From positions 160,001 through 224,000 of the forward strand of contig CAWBAT010000008.1 in the NCBI GenBank assembly GCA_963786955.1: a DNA stretch of 64,000 bases, read 5' to 3'. The position numbers and the translations under genes are program-made. The DNA is from an uncultured Acidimicrobiia bacterium (GTDB taxonomy: Bacteria; Acidobacteriota; Terriglobia; Versatilivoradales; Versatilivoraceae). The notes below the pieces were generated by a model. The model had not been told where the DNA came from and searched no databases. It saw nothing but the letters and a program-made list of their open reading frames with translations. How positions within the stretch are numbered: position 1 is the first letter of the stretch; every line of letters begins with the position of its first letter. Below are positions 2,054 to 22,231 of the stretch, piece by piece.

Positions 2054-3901
2054 TTGATGCGCCAGCATTCAGATCCACCCAGGAAACCTCACGTGAAATC
2101 CTTTCGCCGCCATTTTCTTGGCTCTTTGTCTGTCCTACTGAGTTCCAAACTACTCGATGCGGTCACGACTCCCCTCTGGAAATGGAGTAGTATACCAACC
2201 CTTTCCGCTGCGCCGCTTCTTGTTCCTGACGAAACCTCACCAGTTACATTTGTAGATGTGGCTGAAGAAGCGGGGCTGGTCACCCCGAACGTCTGGGGAG
2301 GAGTGGAACGCAAGAAGTACATTATCGAAGCCAAAGGGAGTGGACTGGCGTTCTTCGATTACGACAATGACGGTTGGCTGGATATCTACCTGACGAACGG
2401 ACTCCGATTGGGAGAGACCTACGAGCCTGGAAAAGCTCCGATCCAACATCTCTTTAAGAACAACCGCGACGGGACATTTACTGATGTGACCGAAAAAGCT
2501 GGTTTGGCGCGGAGTGGCTGGGGCACGGGAATCTGCGTCGGTGATTACAACAATGATGGTTGGGACGACCTGTTCTGTTGCTATTGGGGTCACAACGTCC
2601 TTTGGCACAACAATGGAGACGGCACTTTCACGGATGTGACAAGGAAAGCGGGACTCTGGGAAGAACGCGTGAGATGGGGTTCAGGTTGTTCGTGGGTTGA
2701 TTATGATCGCGACGGCCTTCTTGACCTATTCGTTTGCAATTACCTTGAATTCGACATGAAGAATATCCCCTCCCCGGGTGAATCTCGCTATTGCCAGTGG
2801 AAAGGCCTGCCCGTGATGTGCGGGCCTCGTGGACTTCCCGGCGGGATGAATATTCTTTACCATAACCGCGGGGATGGAACGTTTGCCGATGTTTCGGAAA
2901 AGGCAGGCATTCTGAAACCTGGGCCGAGGTATTCCATTACTGCCGTTGCCTATGACTTTGACAATGACGGCTGGCCTGATATTTATGTGGCTGTAGACTC
3001 GGCTCCGAGTATGTTGTTTCATAATAACCGTGACGGATCATTTACAGAAACGGCTATGGTAGCGGGCTGCGCGTTTAGCGAGGATGGGCAGGAGCAGGCC
3101 GGCATGGGTGTGGGTGTGGGAGACTATGACTGTGACGGATGGTTTGACATCTTCAAAACCAATTTCGCCGATGATACCGCTGACCTATACCATAACTTTG
3201 GGGACGGGACTTTTGAAGTCGTCACATTCCCGGCAGGTGTTGGGGTTAACACCCAATACGTCTGCTGGGGAGCCGGGTTTATGGATTATGACAACGACGG
3301 CTGGGTGGATATTTTTCAGGTCAACGGTCACGTATACCCTGAAATTGAAAAGATGCTGACCGGCGTAAGCTTCAAGAACCCGCGTATTGTTTACAGGAAT
3401 CTCGGCAACGGAAAGTTCAAGGATGTCTCAGCCCAAATGGGTCCTGGGGTGAATGAGAGATTTTCCAGCCGCGGCTGTGCTTTTGGGGATTACGACAACG
3501 ATGGGGATATCGATGTCGTGGTCATGAACATGAATGACAGGCCCTCTCTCCTGCGCAATGACGGGGGAAATAAGAACAATTGGATCAAACTTAAATTGAT
3601 TGGCACACAGTGTAATCGCAGCGCAATTGGCGCGCGTGCTCGGGTGACAATAGGGAAACACTCTCAAATGGACGAGGTCCACACGGGCACTAGCGTCATG
3701 TCGCAAAGCGACTTGCGCCTTCACTTCGGCGTTGGCGATGCAAAGGTCATTGACCTCATCGAAATAAAGTGGCCCACAACGTGGAAAACGGAAGTGTTTA
3801 AATCGGTCAAAGTGAATCAGATTCTCACCATTAAGGAGGGGCGCGGAATAATCAAGGCCGAAGTGCTTCAAGCGCCAGGGAAACTCGTTGTCGTGAAGTA
3901 A
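2054..3901 (+). CDS. CRTAC1-family protein (FG-GAP repeats plus ASPIC/UnbV domain), Tat-like leader
   Basis: Repeated DYDNDGWxD motifs, C-terminal SVMSQSDLRLHFGVG, N-terminal SFRRHFLG. Confidence 0.9.
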   Translation: MMRQHSDPPRKPHVKSFRRHFLGSLSVLLSSKLLDAVTTPLWKWSSIPTLSAAPLLVPDETSPVTFVDVAEEAGLVTPNVWGGVERKKYIIEAKGSGLAFFDYDNDGWLDIYLTNGLRLGETYEPGKAPIQHLFKNNRDGTFTDVTEKAGLARSGWGTGICVGDYNNDGWDDLFCCYWGHNVLWHNNGDGTFTDVTRKAGLWEERVRWGSGCSWVDYDRDGLLDLFVCNYLEFDMKNIPSPGESRYCQWKGLPVMCGPRGLPGGMNILYHNRGDGTFADVSEKAGILKPGPRYSITAVAYDFDNDGWPDIYVAVDSAPSMLFHNNRDGSFTETAMVAGCAFSEDGQEQAGMGVGVGDYDCDGWFDIFKTNFADDTADLYHNFGDGTFEVVTFPAGVGVNTQYVCWGAGFMDYDNDGWVDIFQVNGHVYPEIEKMLTGVSFKNPRIVYRNLGNGKFKDVSAQMGPGVNERFSSRGCAFGDYDNDGDIDVVVMNMNDRPSLLRNDGGNKNNWIKLKLIGTQCNRSAIGARARVTIGKHSQMDEVHTGTSVMSQSDLRLHFGVGDAKVIDLIEIKWPTTWKTEVFKSVKVNQILTIKEGRGIIKAEVLQAPGKLVVVK

Positions 3902-13262: not shown

Positions 13263-14261
13263 CTAGACGATGTCACCGCTGCCGCCCCTGAATCCGCGGC
13301 GATGGGAAAGGCCAGACATCCGATCCCCAGTATTCTTCTCTTCCGACCTGAAAAAAGCCAGATGGATTACCTGGTCTTCAAAAAGCAGAGCAGATCCTAA
13401 GCTCTTCTTGTCTTCGAAGCGGTAATCCTCTCCGAGCCCGATCGAGGCAAACCGGCTTTCGCGACAACCCGTGATCTCTTTAAAGAAAGTCCTGGTTTCG
13501 GCCTCTTTGCCGCTAGAGCCGGACTTCTTATCGTCCAGGATCGCATCCATGGCATAACTCTTGATCAGCTTAAGATGAATCTTTTCAAACGCTGCCTTTT
13601 GAGACAGGACGTCCATACCCACAACTTTTCCGTCAATAAAAACGACGATCCCTTGCTGGTTCGGGACATAGGAGAAAGTTTGCGCGTACTGGTTGAGTTC
13701 ATTTTCCCTGGAGGTGTATACGTCTTTCATGGCGCCGGTTGAAGACGTGACGTTTGCCTTGGAGTGCATCTCGTGTATGTCCTGCCACACAGTCCCCTGA
13801 TCCGATCTGTAGCTTTGGTCTTGATGCAGCGAAGCGCTGACTGAGCGGACTTTATTTAACCGGACTTTACTTGCCAACATAGCGTCTGAGTCTGAAAAGG
13901 CCGCCGAGCGGTAAGACCATCGTCCTTGCTCCGTGCAACTGACTGGAATGATGGTCTCCGAATTCCCCTTGAGAAGCACCGAGGTGTTCAGAACCCGGTT
14001 TTGCTTGGCGCCTATCAATTCCTCGCCGTCCAGCAGCAAGACCAACTGGGTCGATTTGTTGATGACTTTGAGTTCAGGGACAGATCCGGATTGGCTTAGT
14101 TCGGTGATCGCGATGAAGTTCTTGTCCAGCGCTTCTTTTAAGGTGATGTACTCCGGACCGCCATTGTGGGTCGCAAAGATTGGAATGACATCCATATTCT
14201 GAAACGATTGCATTGATCCAAGATGAAGTTCTGACAAATAGGTTGTTATGGTTGGGTTCAT
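13263..14261 (-). CDS. ARPP-1 / DUF6569 family protein
   Basis: GSVPELKVIN..VLLLDGEELIGAKQNRVLN..IPVSCTEQGRW..DQGTVW..LIKSYAMDA. Confidence 0.85.
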   Translation of the reverse strand: MNPTITTYLSELHLGSMQSFQNMDVIPIFATHNGGPEYITLKEALDKNFIAITELSQSGSVPELKVINKSTQLVLLLDGEELIGAKQNRVLNTSVLLKGNSETIIPVSCTEQGRWSYRSAAFSDSDAMLASKVRLNKVRSVSASLHQDQSYRSDQGTVWQDIHEMHSKANVTSSTGAMKDVYTSRENELNQYAQTFSYVPNQQGIVVFIDGKVVGMDVLSQKAAFEKIHLKLIKSYAMDAILDDKKSGSSGKEAETRTFFKEITGCRESRFASIGLGEDYRFEDKKSLGSALLFEDQVIHLAFFRSEEKNTGDRMSGLSHRRGFRGGSGDIV

Positions 14262-14290
14262 GGCGAACCTCCTTGATTAAGAGAACGGGG

Positions 14291-14414
14291 GTAAGGGCCG
14301 AATTCATGGGAACCATTTCTTTACTGGGCCCTTACTTTAGAGCTTATTCCTCTTGCATTCCAGAAGATGGAATAGTGGACAGATTTTTTATCAATGATAG
14401 GTTATTCTCCGTCC
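14291..14414. promoter_or_regulatory. Divergent promoter region with spaced inverted repeats (candidate WYL operator)
   Basis: GTAAGGGCC-N27-GGCCCTTAC (14291-14335); ATTCCA-N5-TGGAAT; GGACAGA-N24-TCCGTCC (14377-14414). Confidence 0.45.
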
Positions 14415-14453
14415 GATGAGCAAGTTAGCCTTTGAAGCAAAGGAAATCGAATT

Positions 14454-15485
14454 ATGCCCGAAAAAAAAGACGCCTACTCCACGCCGGCGATGAAGGTATT
14501 GCGGCTTTATATCTTGTTGCTCTTTAGCGGCAGAGTGTTCTCTCTTTCGGAACTGGCTCGCAAACTCAAATGTTCCAAACAAACCGTGATGCGGATGATG
14601 GAGCAGATCAGCCGGAGCCGTCTCGAACACATCGAGAGTTGGATGGATGAAAGTGGTCGCCGGTTCTACCGCGCCAGGACTCCCGCGACCAAACCGCGGG
14701 TGGCCCTCGACGTGGAAGCCATCCAGCATCTGCTCCTTTGCCGTGACATTGTGTGGCATCTCTTGCCCCTGGCCTTCCGGGAGGAAATCAGTCAAACCAT
14801 CGCTCAAACCACAGTCCTTCTGCCGGAGTTCGAAAAGAGATCAGAAGCCAATACTCACTTTGCCAGAGCTCACTCGAAGGGAAGTATTGATTACTCCCCA
14901 TTTCAGCAAGTGCTGGAAACGGCTCTGGAAGCAATTGCAGGAAGGCGAATCTGCCAAATCAGTTATCGAGGGCAGCCAAAGCAAAAGGCCAAGGATCTTC
15001 TCGTGGCTCCGCTCAAACTCATTGCATACCGCGATGGACTCTATCTCCAATGCCGCCTGGAAAAGGCATTGGCGAATCCGGAGGAGTTTTACGATCCGGT
15101 ACTGGCCATTCATCGGATGGCAAGTCTGAGCCTGACGGACCGAGTCTTCGAAACGCCGAGAGAAAAAAAGAAGAATTTGCCCGCAATGTTTGGTTTCATT
15201 CCGGGTCAGCCGTTTCAGGCCGAAGTGGCCTTTCTTCCGCAAGCAGCCCGATATGTAGCCGAGCGCACTTGGAGTGATGACCAGAAGATCCTTCATCATC
15301 GCGCTGGAGGACTTACCTTGAAGTTCACCGCCAGCAGCCGTCAGGAAGTGATTTCCTGGGTTCTCGGTTTCGGGAAACAAGCTGAGTTGCTGGCTCCGGA
15401 GGATTTGCGCGTGGAGTTGTTGAGATCGCTTCAAGAAACGGCTGATATTTACGGGAGAGGAGGTTCTGGAAAAAAGGCCGAGTGA
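14454..15485 (+). CDS. HTH-WYL-WCX transcriptional regulator
   Basis: N-terminal HTH (SLSELARKLKCSKQTVMR); WYL core (ISY..VAPLKL..DGLYL..LAIHRM); WCX (YVAERTW..WVLGFG..AELLAPEDLR). Confidence 0.9.
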   Translation: MPEKKDAYSTPAMKVLRLYILLLFSGRVFSLSELARKLKCSKQTVMRMMEQISRSRLEHIESWMDESGRRFYRARTPATKPRVALDVEAIQHLLLCRDIVWHLLPLAFREEISQTIAQTTVLLPEFEKRSEANTHFARAHSKGSIDYSPFQQVLETALEAIAGRRICQISYRGQPKQKAKDLLVAPLKLIAYRDGLYLQCRLEKALANPEEFYDPVLAIHRMASLSLTDRVFETPREKKKNLPAMFGFIPGQPFQAEVAFLPQAARYVAERTWSDDQKILHHRAGGLTLKFTASSRQEVISWVLGFGKQAELLAPEDLRVELLRSLQETADIYGRGGSGKKAE

Positions 15486-15612
15486 GTTAAACGGATGTGA
15501 TCTTCGAATATCTTAGCTTCCCCCGATGGGACTAAGAATGTGGAATGGGGGACGGCCGGCGGTCTTAGGGCGCCGATATGGGGGGTTGGGGAAGAACCGA
15601 TCAAAGTAATCG

Positions 15613-15646
15613 TCCCCCCTTAGACAAGGGGGGACTTCAGGGGGGT
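15613..15646. repeat. CCCCC-N-GGGGG REP-like palindrome
   Basis: tccccccttagacaaggggggacttcagggggg; a similar copy lies at about 57744-57774. Confidence 0.7.
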
Positions 15647-15657
15647 GGGTCCCGAGT

Positions 15658-15770
15658 AGGGAATGTGCAAAGGTTATGTCCGTGTTCTTGGGTGATTGTT
15701 CCCAGTCCCGTTAGGGACGACATCTTTATAGAACTCGTATCCCCAATTAAGCGCCAACCCCTTAGGGGCG
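15658..15770. repeat. Composite repeat module A, copy 1
   Basis: Aligns closely with 18591-18702 and contains the hairpin agtcccgttagggacgacatctttatag. Confidence 0.9.
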
Positions 15771-15933
15771 GTGCTCGGGTGAGGAATGCGAGAAATTGAT
15801 CAACTACCACAGCCGGGCCGGTTCAAGCAAAAACCCAAGGCCTAATATTAAGATATAATGATGTTCATGATTCTTTGCCACGTCACCCATCCCGACCACT
15901 GGAACAAACCACCTCAACCGAGCTAGGAGAGAG

Positions 15934-16497
15934 ATGTCTAAACATCACGTCTGTCCTTGGTGGCTCGGATACTTGCTCGCGAGTCCGATACGCCGCCTCT
16001 GGTATGATCCCCGCGAAGTCCTGAGTCCGCACGTTCGTGAAGGCATGACGGTCCTCGAGCCGGGGCCGGGTATGGGCTTCTTCACCCTGGAACTGCTTCG
16101 ATTAACAAGTCCCTCGGGTCGGGTGGTGGTCGTCGACATGCAGCCCAGGATGCTCGCAGCACTGAAACGCCGGGCGGCAAAGGCCGGACTTCTCGACCGG
16201 CTCGATGCCCGACTCGTTCAGCCGGATTCCATGGGACTTGTCGGTCTCGATGGCGGGGTGGATTTTGCCCTCGCCTTCGCGGTGGTCCACGAGCTTCCTG
16301 CCGCCGGTCCCTTCTTCGCCGAGGTTTCGCGAGCCCTGAAACCTCGCGCCCACTTGCTTCTGGCCGAACCCGTCGGACACGTTAAGCCGGCCGAGTTCGA
16401 GGCGCAGTTACAACATGCAGCCAGCGCCGGCCTGATTCCGGTGGACCGCCCGGCAATCCGGCGCAGCAAGACTGCGTTGCTCGAAAAGACCTCTTGA
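15934..16497 (+). CDS. Class I SAM-dependent methyltransferase
   Basis: HVCPWWLGYLL; VLEPGPGMGFF motif I; FAVVHE. Confidence 0.9.
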   Translation: MSKHHVCPWWLGYLLASPIRRLWYDPREVLSPHVREGMTVLEPGPGMGFFTLELLRLTSPSGRVVVVDMQPRMLAALKRRAAKAGLLDRLDARLVQPDSMGLVGLDGGVDFALAFAVVHELPAAGPFFAEVSRALKPRAHLLLAEPVGHVKPAEFEAQLQHAASAGLIPVDRPAIRRSKTALLEKTS

Positions 16498-16511
16498 CGA
16501 GGTTCACCGCC

Positions 16512-17358
16512 ATGAGGAATGGACTGATGAGAACATCCTTAAGAATAACCAGTTCATTGTGCGCATTCGCCGTCCTTTTGCTCGGGGGGGCTGCACCCGG
16601 ATGTCCCAATCTTTGTATCTGAGCGGCTACGACCGCGACATCAAGAACTCTACGCGGGCCATCGAGGCCGCCCGCGACGATGTCCAGCGCGCGGCGGGAT
16701 ACGCTCAGCGCGGCAGCGCCTATTCCGAGAAAGCCCGCTATTGCCGGGCCTTCAAGCTGATTCCTGCCGATGAATACGGCCGCTTGTTCAGTCTGGCCCT
16801 CAAGGACCATGACCAGGCCGTGGCGCTCGACCCCTAGCAGCGCGGAGGCGTATTTCAAGCCGGGGGCAGACCTATTACGACCGGGCCGCCTTAGAGGACC
16901 CCAAGGATGCCAAGCCGTGGTTCGACTCCGCGGCCGCGGATTTCACGAGCGCCGTCGAGAGAGACGGTCGGCATTACATGGCGTGGGACATGCTCGGCCT
17001 GGTCCATTCAAGTATCGGGGAATGGGACAATGCCATCAGTGATTTCACGCAAGAGATGGCGCTCAATGCGTTGGGCAAGACGAGGCTAGCCGACGCCTAC
17101 TGCGAGCGGGGACTTTCCCGCGAGAGAGAGAAGAGTTACGGTTCCGCCGTCGCAGATTTTGAGAAGGCGGTCGAGATTGGCACCACTGCCGATGGCTGCT
17201 CGTGCGATCCTTACAACCCGCTGGTCGCGAACTATGTCGGCGAAAGCCGGCAGTACGACAAGGCCTGGGAAGTCGTCCATAAGGCGAAGAAGTCCAAGAG
17301 ATGGATCGCGCCCGAATTGCTGGAGAGCTTGAAAAAAGGTTCCGGACGCAACGACTAG
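16512..17358 (+). CDS. TPR-repeat lipoprotein, frameshifted (sequence errors or pseudogene)
   Basis: Joining frames gives MRNGLMRTSLRITSSLCAFAVLLLGGC..., DHDQAVALDP/SSAEAYFKRG and ADAYCERG; shifts at a G7 run (~16584), a C4 run (~16832) and ~16860. Confidence 0.65.
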
Positions 17359-17389
17359 CGGCGCTCTATGAGCGCCGACCAGCCCTCCC

Positions 17390-17672
17390 AGCCCCATCGG
17401 GGCAACATATTTATAGCTTTGCGTCCGCCAATAAGAATTCTCCCTCCCCCTGGTTGAAGGCCGGGTCCCCAGAACCGGCGTTGCAGTGGTTCTGTGATGG
17501 AGGTAATCTCCCTCTCCCCAACGCGGTGGTCCGTCGGGACCGGGTGATGGGGACCTCCACTCCAGAGCCTTGACACAGTATCTCAACTCCCCTCCTTTTT
17601 TAAGGAGGGGCCAGGGGGTGGTGGGTATCTCTTCAATCCCCTCCTTTTTAAGGAGGGGATACAGGGGTGGTG
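17390..17672. repeat. Composite repeat module B, copy 1
   Basis: About 280 bp aligning with 18688-18978; built from several hairpins. Confidence 0.9.
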
Positions 17673-17705
17673 ATTTAACCTTGTCCCCCTCCTCTCATAA
17701 GGAGG

Positions 17706-17825
17706 GAAAATGTGAAAAGATTCCGCCGGGTCGGGGGACCCAGCCTACAATATAATGGTAAGCCCGTTGAAATCATTGTAGGCCGCGTGACCTCACGCGG
17801 CGTTTTCCAATTCTTTCACACTTTC
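17706..17825. mobile_element. MITE-like unit: terminal inverted repeats enclosing a GTAG-REP doublet
   Basis: gaaaatgtgaaaag ... tctttcacactttc flank ccgggtcgggggacccagcctaca / tgtaggccgcgtgacctcacgcggc. Confidence 0.6.
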
Positions 17826-17942
17826 AGGGGGTTCGGGGGAGGTGGTTGCTGTCTATTCCCTCTCCCTGGTGGGGAGAGGGAAACGAAGAAATCGGAACAC
17901 CGGCATGCTCGTCCATGGCGCAGTTCTGCCGTGCTCAAGTAT

Positions 17943-18236
17943 TTAGCCCCTTGCGATTCTAGCTAGTTGGGCTTTCATGTATGCCCTCAGAAGGGCATTA
18001 ATGCGTGTCTGGTACCCACGCCCCTGTGCCTTAAACCATTTGAGGACATCACTATCTACACGCAAAGTCAGTTGTTTTTTATTGGGAACGACCCTTAGAC
18101 CGTACCGGACAACTGCCTGGGCAAATTTGCTGGGAGAAATTTCTGGGATATCGGAAAAATCAATGTCCCCGTCTTCCATTGCAGTCAGGCGCTTAAAGTT
18201 AGTGCGCGATTTGTTCAAAGTAGGCTTTTCTTTCAT
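17943..18236 (-). CDS. brnA: BrnA antitoxin
   Basis: KKQLTLRVDSDVLKWFKAQGRGYQTRINALLR. Confidence 0.92.
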   Translation of the reverse strand: MKEKPTLNKSRTNFKRLTAMEDGDIDFSDIPEISPSKFAQAVVRYGLRVVPNKKQLTLRVDSDVLKWFKAQGRGYQTRINALLRAYMKAQLARIARG

Positions 18237-18474
18237 TTCGTGTAGCCTTTCGAATTGAGATCAGTCTGATTCTATTTTGGCGTTCTGTGTGTAAGACGGC
18301 CACCACTCTACCTTTCAACATCCCGAATGTGATGAAACGGTTCTCGTCATATTGAAAACGATCATCTTGCAGGGTGACTGTGAACCCCGCAAAGATCTTG
18401 ACAGCGTCCACAAAATCGACGCCGTGCTTTTGCAGATTCGTGCGGCGTTTGTTTTCATCCCACTCGAATTGCAT
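18199..18474 (-). CDS. brnT: BrnT ribonuclease toxin
   Basis: MQFEWDENK..NLQKHGVDF..ENRFITFG..IRLISIRKA; overlaps brnA. Confidence 0.92.
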   Translation of the reverse strand: MQFEWDENKRRTNLQKHGVDFVDAVKIFAGFTVTLQDDRFQYDENRFITFGMLKGRVVAVLHTERQNRIRLISIRKATRNERKAYFEQIAH

Positions 18475-18590
18475 GATTCAATTGTAGTGCCATAATGTAA
18501 CTGCGTCAAGATTGTCATGCAGAATGAAGATAGAAGAACGAGGAAGGGCGTGATAGTTCGTAGGACCCCCTTGTTTATTCATTCTCGAGA

Positions 18591-18978
18591 AGGGAATGTA
18601 CTAGGGCTATGTCCGTGTTCTTGGGCGATTGTTCCAGTCCCGTTACGGACGACATCTTTATAGAACTCGTATCCCCAATTAAGCACCAGCCCCATAGGGG
18701 CGACCTATTTATAGGTCTGCGTCCGCCAATAAGAATTCCCGCTCCCCCTGGTTGAAGGCCGGGTCCCCAGAACCGGCGTTGCAGTGTTCTGTGATGGAGG
18801 TAATCTCCCTCTCCCCAACGCGGGAGAGGGAGGCCCGCTAGGACCGGGCGAGAGGGACCTCCACTCCAGAGCCTTGACACAGTATCTCAACTCCCCTCCT
18901 TTCTTAAGGAGGGGGTCAGGGGGTGGTGGGTATCTCTTCAATCCCCTCCTTTCTAAAGAAGGGGATTCAGGGGAGGTG
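18591..18978. repeat. Composite repeat, uninterrupted A+B copy
   Basis: First part matches 15658-15770 and second part matches 17390-17672; they join at the hairpin gccccataggggc. Confidence 0.9.
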
Positions 18979-19045
18979 CATCGTAGTATGCGGAGTCAAA
19001 GGGGCAAGGAAGGGGAAGTTGCCGGATGAGTTGGAACCCTCTCGA

Positions 19046-19426
19046 TTACGATTTCCATTTCCGGTCTTCTGCGACACATTCCCGAACACGAAACGCAGTA
19101 ATCTTGCGAATGAGAGACAACGGCAGGGGTTTTTCCAGCGGAAACTGAATTGAGCCCTTGGCAGTTTTGAATTTTGAAAGATCTTCTGCAAAGGCCTTCA
19201 CTGCTGACGGCGTGGGATAGAACCCAATATGGTGCTTGAACGCGGCGAAGGTGACCAATATTCTTTGATAAGAGAATGCGGGCATTCCCCACTTCAAGCT
19301 TTCCTTTGCTCCGGGCGCCGCCGCGCGAATGCAGGCGCGCATTTCACGCAGTTTCCCCCGAGCTTCCTTGGGAGCCGCTTGAATATATTCGGCAATATTT
19401 TTAGGTTTTTCCTTTTTTGAAAGCAT
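19046..19426 (-). CDS. DUF1801 (YdhG/iron chaperone-like) protein
   Basis: IRAAAPGAKESLKWGMPAF..FAAFKHHIGFYP..KGSIQFP. Confidence 0.9.
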   Translation of the reverse strand: MLSKKEKPKNIAEYIQAAPKEARGKLREMRACIRAAAPGAKESLKWGMPAFSYQRILVTFAAFKHHIGFYPTPSAVKAFAEDLSKFKTAKGSIQFPLEKPLPLSLIRKITAFRVRECVAEDRKWKS

Positions 19427-22141: not shown

Positions 22142-22231
22142 TGGCGGAGAGAGTGGGATTCGAACCCACGTTAGAGTTTCCCCTAAACACGCTTTCCAAG
22201 CGTGCGCCTTCAGCCACTCGGCCATCTCTCC
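22142..22231 (-). tRNA. tRNA-Ser(GGA)
   Basis: GGAGAGATGGCCGAGTGG..CACGC-TTGGAAA-GCGTG, long variable arm, GGTTCGAATCC, 3' CCA; 90 nt. Confidence 0.97.

Follow-up and report, generated by a model that had tools for sequence, protein, structure and literature searches.

Locus and geometry of the repeat copies

The window analysed in this study is a stretch of 64,000 nt from the genome of an uncultured sediment bacterium (G000:C8:160001-224000, where G000 denotes this genome and C3, C4, C6, C8 and so on its contigs); positions are those of the window unless a contig is named. At 15.6-19 kb it carries two copies, ~3 kb apart, of a ~390-nt patchwork of small extragenic repeats, among them repetitive extragenic palindromes (REPs). 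One copy (AB) is continuous. The other is divided into a left part (A') and a right part (B') by a 1.6 kb segment, referred to as the cargo, that contains a methyltransferase gene and a gene for a tetratricopeptide repeat (TPR) lipoprotein. The sequence was compared with 40 relatives of G000, including its sister species within the genus (G001 and G002), and with contigs of four sediment metagenome runs. The features of the locus and of the variable region around it are listed in Table 1.

Table 1. Features of the split-repeat locus and of the borders of the surrounding variable region (positions in the window).
Feature	Position	Strand	Remarks
Glycoside-hydrolase (GH)-like gene, 766 aa	6979..9279	+	Left border of the variable region; Atlas look-alikes GHL6/Glyco_hydro_42M
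Y-type hairpin element	15596..15649	+	CCCCCC..GGGGGG, then CAGGGGGGTGG; immediately left of A'
A'	15650..15770	+	m1 15650-15701 (unique), REP-X unit 1 15705-15731, spacer, REP-X unit 2
Cargo leader	15771..15933	+	Unique sequence; no second copy in the genome, none in 80 methyltransferase loci
Class I S-adenosylmethionine-dependent methyltransferase gene, 187 aa	15934..16497	+	Pfam Methyltransf_25/31/11
TPR lipoprotein gene	16513..17358	+	Pfam TPR_1/2; three frames in the assembly
GTAG-type REP singlet, 26-mer	17356..17381	+	Overlaps the TPR stop codon
B'	17388..17672	+	REP-X unit with tail 17391-17416, spacer modules, further hairpins
MITE/REPIN-like element, ~130 bp	17701..17829	+	Inverted ends GTGAAAAG..CTTTCAC
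brnA	17943-18236	-	Pfam BrnA_antitoxin, 1.3e-18
brnT	18199-18474	-	Pfam BrnT_toxin, 1.9e-27
AB, continuous copy	18583..18978	+	m1, REP-X unit 1 (hairpin ~18637), unit 2, B body, two Y hairpins
DUF1801 gene	19046..19426	-	Pfam DUF1801, 4.7e-17
tRNA-Ser(GGA)	22142..22231	-	ARAGORN; right border of the variable region, where synteny with G001/G002 resumes

Comparison of 15400-19100 against itself gave exactly two diagonals. A' matched 18583-18702 from 15650 to 15770 (90.1% identity over 121 nt, E 3e-42), and B' matched 18686-18978 from 17388 to 17672 (89.5% identity over 294 nt, E 2e-108). A first-pass annotation had described a composite of ~390 bp that is continuous once and split once; this description was borne out, with its A and B coordinates right to within 8 nt (A begins at 15650 and not at 15658). 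The layout given there, A-[methyltransferase, TPR]-B-[brnTA]-AB-[DUF1801], likewise stood when the gene content was checked with Pfam, the TPR gene being broken in the window. Within AB the two matches share 17 nt (18686-18702), which form the hairpin CCAGCCCCATAGGGGCG. The version of this hairpin that ends A' (15754-15770) and the version that opens B' (17388-17404) are each identical to that of AB at 15 of 17 positions and to one another at 13 of 17. The hairpin thus lies on either side of the 1.6 kb insert, as had been claimed. In A' it is bare, the tail that belongs to the repeat unit being absent, while the corresponding unit 2 of AB is complete (18689-18714). Beyond its first hairpin B' contains a GGGAGAGGG-type hairpin, a GGTCCG..GGACC hairpin and two Y-type hairpins, and a third Y-type hairpin follows at 17685-17707.

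The composite of A and B was confined to this locus, with no third copy in the genome and none in the 40 relatives; its sub-modules were found singly elsewhere in the genome at 72-92% identity. An exact-pattern scan of the metagenome contigs gave no match to the A module. A second, partial A unit directly behind the A' hairpin looked plausible by eye and was discarded, the observed score being reached by 203 and 219 of 300 shuffled sequences.

The junction between A' and the cargo was bridged by contigs of X1, X2 and X4, three sediment metagenome runs from three studies. A' is linked with B' across the cargo by one X2 contig (2055 nt, ~95% identity). Because the contigs of these independent runs cross the junction, the arrangement is real and not the artefact of assembly that the first-pass annotation had named as a possible refutation. 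From the piece lengths of one contig, the fused AB form seems to be present in the X2 strain as well, and the module content of the patchwork differs among the strains represented in the contigs.

The repeat families and the Y1 genes

In B' and AB, the break hairpin and the 13 nt behind it make up a unit of a repeat family, here called REP-X. Each unit has a stem of 5 bp (GCTCC, GCCGC, GCCCC or GTCCC), 3-5 nt of loop and, behind these, a tail near GACCTGTTTATAG. A strict scan for hairpin plus tail counted 63 units genome-wide; neighbouring pairs in direct orientation, 51-52 bp apart, numbered at least 15. A' and AB each contain two units 52 bp apart, which is the tandem-pair spacing of the family, and doublets that also share the spacer sequence (C3:125690, C5:194085 and C8:106236) correspond to the 3' part of A. 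Over all 41 genomes, matches to a stricter pattern were counted, with the reversed pattern as control. The pattern gave 32 matches in G000 (control 1), 20 in G001 (control 0), 10 in G002 (control 0), 6 in G017 (control 1) and 4 in G012 (control 1); the remaining 36 genomes had 0-2 matches each with controls of 0-3, except G020, whose 7 matches belong to another repeat. The break hairpin is therefore a true REP unit, in that it is extragenic, a short imperfect palindrome and repeated across the genome.

The composite pieces together units of no fewer than four small extragenic repeat families and resembles the REPs and bacterial interspersed mosaic elements (BIMEs) known from Enterobacteria and Pseudomonas. 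The likeness lies in GC-rich extragenic palindromes, present in tens of copies and set in mosaic intergenic arrays with other motifs; here REP-X, the GTAG-REP, the GGGAGAGGG-type hairpin and Y hairpins are combined, and at other loci they are recombined otherwise. Three traits differ from REPs and BIMEs. REP-X has ~60 copies rather than hundreds, its units, in A', AB and most pairs, follow one another in the same direction every 51-52 bp rather than in alternating orientation, and a conserved 13-nt tail follows 3' of a very short, 5-bp stem.

The GTAG-REP, named after the tag used in PMC3733652, has ten further copies in the genome, of which nine agree exactly over 26 nt and the tenth over 25 nt. 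At those sites it forms the left end of an inverted doublet of ~110 bp (for example G000:C5:657546 and C9:104830) that resembles a REPIN (a REP doublet forming a hairpin) or a MITE (a miniature transposable element with inverted repeats). An exact 22-nt match was also seen in a metagenome-assembled genome (MAG) titled Acidobacteria bacterium. The Y hairpin has the general form CCCCTCC..GGAGGGG, then CAGGGGGTGG. Its full pattern occurs 28 times in the genome, six of them within the window (further hairpins lie at 17589-17707, 18893-18965 and 22349), with no occurrence in shuffled sequence. The Y element next to A' is 88-97% identical to copies in G007, G008, G010, G014, G016 and G019, that is, in at least six genomes from four other genera of the family. 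The Y stem includes AAGGAGG, which is Shine-Dalgarno-like. Apparent joints such as 15647->22344 were rejected as rearrangements, being short-sided joins of Y-hairpin copies. The GGGAGAGGG-type hairpin with its GGTCCG..GGACC companion is common in G000 and G002. The MITE/REPIN-like element to the right of B' is found six more times in the genome, at 81-93% identity, and in many copies in other genera (G008, G011, G012, G017 and G019).

The Pfam family Y1_Tnp gave 21 matches in the genome. Two of these Y1 genes (C3:281497-281841 and C9:203666-204010, 91% identical at the amino acid level) sit within REP-X arrays, and their surroundings to ~700 bp hold 12 of the 63 strict units (eight at C3 and four at C9). 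In G001, 13 of the 20 pattern matches surround two Y1 homologues of 73-74% identity, and in G017 REP-X units adjoin a homologue of 54% identity. The first-pass annotation had linked the hairpin to Y1 enzymes and had proposed looking in the genome for Y1 genes flanked by it; two were found, and the link recurs in the two relatives. A Y1 gene flanked by REP arrays is given as the defining layout of the RAYTs (REP-associated tyrosine transposases) by PMC2817692, PMC5581495 and PMC3390384. An IS200/RAYT-like Y1 gene, with two copies elsewhere in the genome, has REP-X as its cognate repeat.

The pair shares with RAYT/REPIN systems a Y1 gene, putatively of the HUH type, that is flanked on both sides by its own REP family and co-occurs with it across relatives, and the inverted ~110-bp doublet of the GTAG-REP has the layout of a REPIN. 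It differs in that the Y1 protein (the C3 copy was scored) passed the IS200/IS605 model NF033573 (74.2 bits, cut-off 55) and fell below the cut-off of the RAYT model NF047646 (36.3 bits, cut-off 80), in that the gene has two copies, and in that REP-X forms direct repeats and not inverted doublets. The translation contains PDHIHLLV and VVRYIQNQ, which are candidates for the HUH motif and the catalytic tyrosine. In the assembly an in-frame TGA interrupts the C9 copy, and an in-frame ATG is missing from the other; the missing ATG may be an artefact, since homopolymer errors occur elsewhere in the assembly. No match to the Y1 family PF01797, which an IS200/IS605 transposon with passenger genes would be expected to carry, was found within 15.6-19 kb, and the nearest lies ~20 kb away (C8:155686-155904). 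Directly upstream of another Y1 gene (C6:1073404-1073745), at least six tandem units of ~73 bp were observed (G000:C6:1072954-1073400).

The cargo and the variable region

The methyltransferase gene has a GC content of 57-62%, compared with 51.5% for the genome. Its relatives numbered 272 after confirmation, of which the best 80 loci were kept; in these the homologues, mostly from MAGs titled Acidobacteriota, have 58-73% amino acid identity. None of the 80 loci has this TPR gene near the methyltransferase, and none carries A or B modules, apart from a single 22-nt match to the GTAG-REP.

The frame of the TPR gene is broken in the G7 run at 16586-16592 and near 16836/16857. Variants in X1 and X2 mend it, by one G more or two G fewer in the run and by loss of one base at 16836 and at 16857, and the mended frame also regains a lipobox resembling that of a G002 gene. 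Since these variants restore the frame, it is probable that the assembly erred at homopolymers here, and other 'pseudogenes' of this genome call for the same caution. The G002 gene encodes an intact lipoprotein of 306 aa, shares 80% nucleotide identity with the TPR gene, and lies at a different locus, where it adjoins an efflux operon and has no methyltransferase neighbour. The homology extends from 5 nt before the methyltransferase stop codon to the TPR stop codon. The site in G000 that corresponds to the G002 locus, considered as an 'empty' TPR site, was uninformative, synteny simply stopping there. A conserved two-gene module was rejected as an account of the cargo. Because the TPR gene stands alone in G002 and accompanies none of the 80 methyltransferases, the 1.6 kb segment is a mosaic in its own right, made up of at least two acquisitions and a REP singlet.

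The split-repeat locus lies in a variable region of 12.9 kb between the 766-aa GH-like gene and tRNA-Ser(GGA). The GH-like gene has 91% amino acid identity in G002 and 78% in G001, and synteny ends at its stop codon. In G000 the region contains two GH-like genes, an ARPP-1 gene, a WYL/WCX regulator, the split-repeat locus, DUF1801, a major facilitator superfamily (MFS) transporter and a GYD gene. In G001 it is made up of a minus-strand stretch without annotation, DUF1801, further repeats, a small region likewise unannotated and an Rdx-like gene, and in G002 of two Y hairpins, a B-type REP-X element at the edge of the region, a GYD-domain gene, an O-methyltransferase, DUF1801 and Rdx. DUF1801 (92% amino acid identity in G002, 87% in G001) is the sole gene of the region common to the three species, and its order relative to GYD is swapped between G000 and G002. 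The GC content is patchy, at 57-64% for the cargo and 44-50% for brnA/brnT (a type II toxin-antitoxin pair) in a genome of 51.5%. No integrase was present among the open reading frames (ORFs) listed for the surroundings of the locus, and no direct repeat of the tRNA-Ser 3' end was found, the longest match in 1-22099 being 16 nt (15 identical, E 0.16). The region is thus a hotspot of gene flux and not a classical tRNA-integrated island.

At 13263-15485 the ARPP-1 domain gene (348 bits) is divergent from the HTH-WYL-WCX regulator; both fall in the part of the hotspot specific to G000 and are possibly a defence-related pair. In G002:C2 a 444-aa ORF lies between a URO-D-like gene and deoC (2186-3520 of the stretch examined) and, judged from its translation, reads like a group II intron reverse transcriptase. 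A 335-aa ORF of the window corresponds to the URO-D-like gene of G002 in two segments of 86 aa and 251 aa, whose junction lies near 934-940 of the G002 stretch.

Origin of the split and rival explanations

The arrangement is, in our assessment, probably a locally duplicated cluster of REP/BIME-like repeats in which one insertion or deletion has occurred by recombination from REP to REP, at a variable hotspot beside tRNA-Ser. The 390-nt patchwork would have been copied once within this horizontally fed region between the GH-like gene and tRNA-Ser(GGA), and the copies would then have diverged by ~10%. They differ by a single 1.6 kb segment, which comprises the leader, the methyltransferase, the TPR gene, the GTAG-REP and the spacer and has its two ends in the same REP-X hairpin. 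A single recombination inside the hairpin, between two direct REP-X units 1.6 kb apart, could account for this, and we infer that the crossover was REP-to-REP. Read forwards, a copy of A'-cargo-B' would have been reduced to AB by deletion; read backwards, a segment excised from a similar context would have been inserted. The two directions are given even odds. The event might have been brought about by short-homology recombination, by slippage at hairpins or palindromes, or by a Y1 enzyme; the last is rated less likely than the first two because those need nothing that is not already known. A rearrangement endpoint inside a REP unit common to both partners has a counterpart in Salmonella, where Shyamala, Schneider and Ames in 1990 reportedly mapped duplication join-points to REPs.

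The surroundings of the two parts bear on which form is the older. B' is preceded by the GTAG-REP, a spacer of 9-12 nt and then the REP-X hairpin, and the same order of GTAG-REP, spacer, REP-X and body occurs at C6:113731, C4:842552 and C3:64893, the element at C4:842552 being bounded as a whole by inverted ends. B' is thus a canonical element, and AB carries the A doublet in the place where that left part belongs. A' is in turn a canonical doublet that breaks off precisely at the 3' foot of the second hairpin. Because B' keeps the left context of the other B-type copies, the fused AB may be the derived form and not an empty target.

Several points weigh against this explanation. Only a single such event was observed. 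The stretch available for a crossover is short (the 17-nt hairpin plus at most 13 nt of tail), a length near the lower limit for homologous recombination. At the four informative sites of the hairpin, AB agrees with B' at the two left sites and with A' at the two right sites, which does not fit a simple single crossover, although at 10% divergence this is uninformative. By our reckoning, about three events are needed in either direction to reach the present layout, and a Y1 enzyme could still have had a part in them.

It is possible, at rather low probability, that the two copies have been kept alike by a host function, as a terminator, a stabiliser of mRNA or a protein-binding site, and that the split is incidental. 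Such roles are credited to REPs in PMC3390384 and PMC3733652, and the cluster is located between gene ends. Against this, an Rfam scan of 14-21 kb gave no match at E values up to 1, the gene context is inconsistent (upstream of the methyltransferase in one case and downstream of DUF1801 in the other), and the module content varies among strains.

The first-pass annotation had read the locus as a system of gene capture in which a Y1/RAYT-like enzyme acts in trans, cutting single-stranded REP hairpins (here those of REP-X) and inserting or shuffling gene segments between them to give an integron-like array. What stood of this proposal is the true REP hairpin, the family linked to Y1 genes in several genomes and the variable region; its integron-like side was not supported, there being a single split site, and we regard an active system of this kind as improbable. 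In its favour the break lies exactly at the REP-X hairpin, which is present on both sides, and the hotspot shuffles genes, with DUF1801 and GYD changing order and a B-type REP-X element at its edge in G002. Set against these points, the composite was seen split at one site and nowhere else in the genome or the relatives. No empty site or site with alternative cargo, of the kind that capture would predict, was found in the genome, the 40 relatives or the four metagenome runs, and no cargo-less A'B' junction was listed in the contigs of these runs, which drop rare variants and so do not show that such junctions are lacking. The cargo is a mosaic without common origin, the borders of the DUF1801 and GYD blocks have no REP-X, no Y1 gene lies in the locus, and both Y1 copies look damaged in the assembly, where errors are possible. 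Both forms are moreover conserved in a strain ~5% diverged, which argues against recent movement. Marginally less probable still is the stronger version, in which REP-X hairpins are live recombination sites for Y1 in trans and A'-cargo-B' and AB are the filled and the empty site; if it were true, REP clusters beside tRNA-Ser would be integrase-free cassette platforms from which segments are excised and re-inserted at REP-X units.

It is very unlikely that an ordinary mobile element of the insertion sequence (IS) or transposon type inserted into the REP and left a long duplication of its target. The 17-nt duplication flanking the insert would suit such an element. REPs are known targets of some IS families, and ISPpu9 is reported to have inserted into REPs (PMC8450116). 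No transposase or integrase ORF was found in 15771-17387, the cargo has no terminal inverted repeats, and the insert ends on the right in a REP singlet that forms part of the canonical B-type element. A target duplication of 17 nt also exceeds the usual length. Least probable of all is a repeat-induced mis-join, collapse or duplicated segment in the MAG, a suspicion fed by the apparent homopolymer errors in the TPR gene and countered by the bridging contigs of X1, X2 and X4, by the single X2 contig that covers A' to B', and by a 10% divergence that collapse or duplication error would not be expected to leave.

REPs have been discussed as sites of recombination (PMC3390384, PMC2817692). In Pseudomonas they are described as marking stable regions, with mobile DNA confined to REP deserts (PMC3390384), whereas the present REP cluster lies in a hotspot of gene flux. 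Because mobile DNA avoids REPs in Pseudomonas, this position is mildly unusual; it is no evidence for capture. A keyword search of the open-access literature found no report of genes moved between REPs. The locus adds a REP/Y1 pair of unusual layout (direct 52-bp tandem, conserved 3' tail, few copies) from an uncultured sediment bacterium, and one clean case of a rearrangement with both ends in a single REP hairpin. The bacterium is possibly an acidobacterium, a lead given by the Atlas look-alikes of a flanking gene, which come mostly from Acidobacteriota. It should be of use in the annotation of repeats and in studies of gene-flux hotspots, with little surprise for specialists. We know of no gene-moving function for RAYT-type enzymes, and for that reason an exchange from REP to REP that proved to be enzyme-driven and recurrent would carry far greater weight.

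The locus was also compared with integrons and with clusters of attC sites lacking integron integrases (CALINs). It resembles them in that unrelated small genes, including a toxin-antitoxin pair, are parted by similar structured repeats in a variable region, and it differs in that the repeats are 390-nt mosaics, only two in number, with genes on both strands. The array claimed by the first-pass annotation was not supported. The integron integrase model TIGR02249 had no match in the window, and its best match in the genome (190 bits, cut-off 265) was truncated (C4:289913-290350). A classical integron was accordingly rejected: IntI was absent from the locus and, judged by eye, its repeats do not resemble the attC-like sites found in the C4 array. 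The C4 integrase fragment, within the stretch G000:C4:288413-291850, has 167 aa and covers positions 1-146 of TIGR02249. Beyond it, to C4:297000, lie about ten small ORFs that share one strand, opposite to that of the integrase, and are parted by attC-like imperfect palindromes. In appearance the C4 array is a chromosomal integron that has decayed, without relation to the repeats of the locus.

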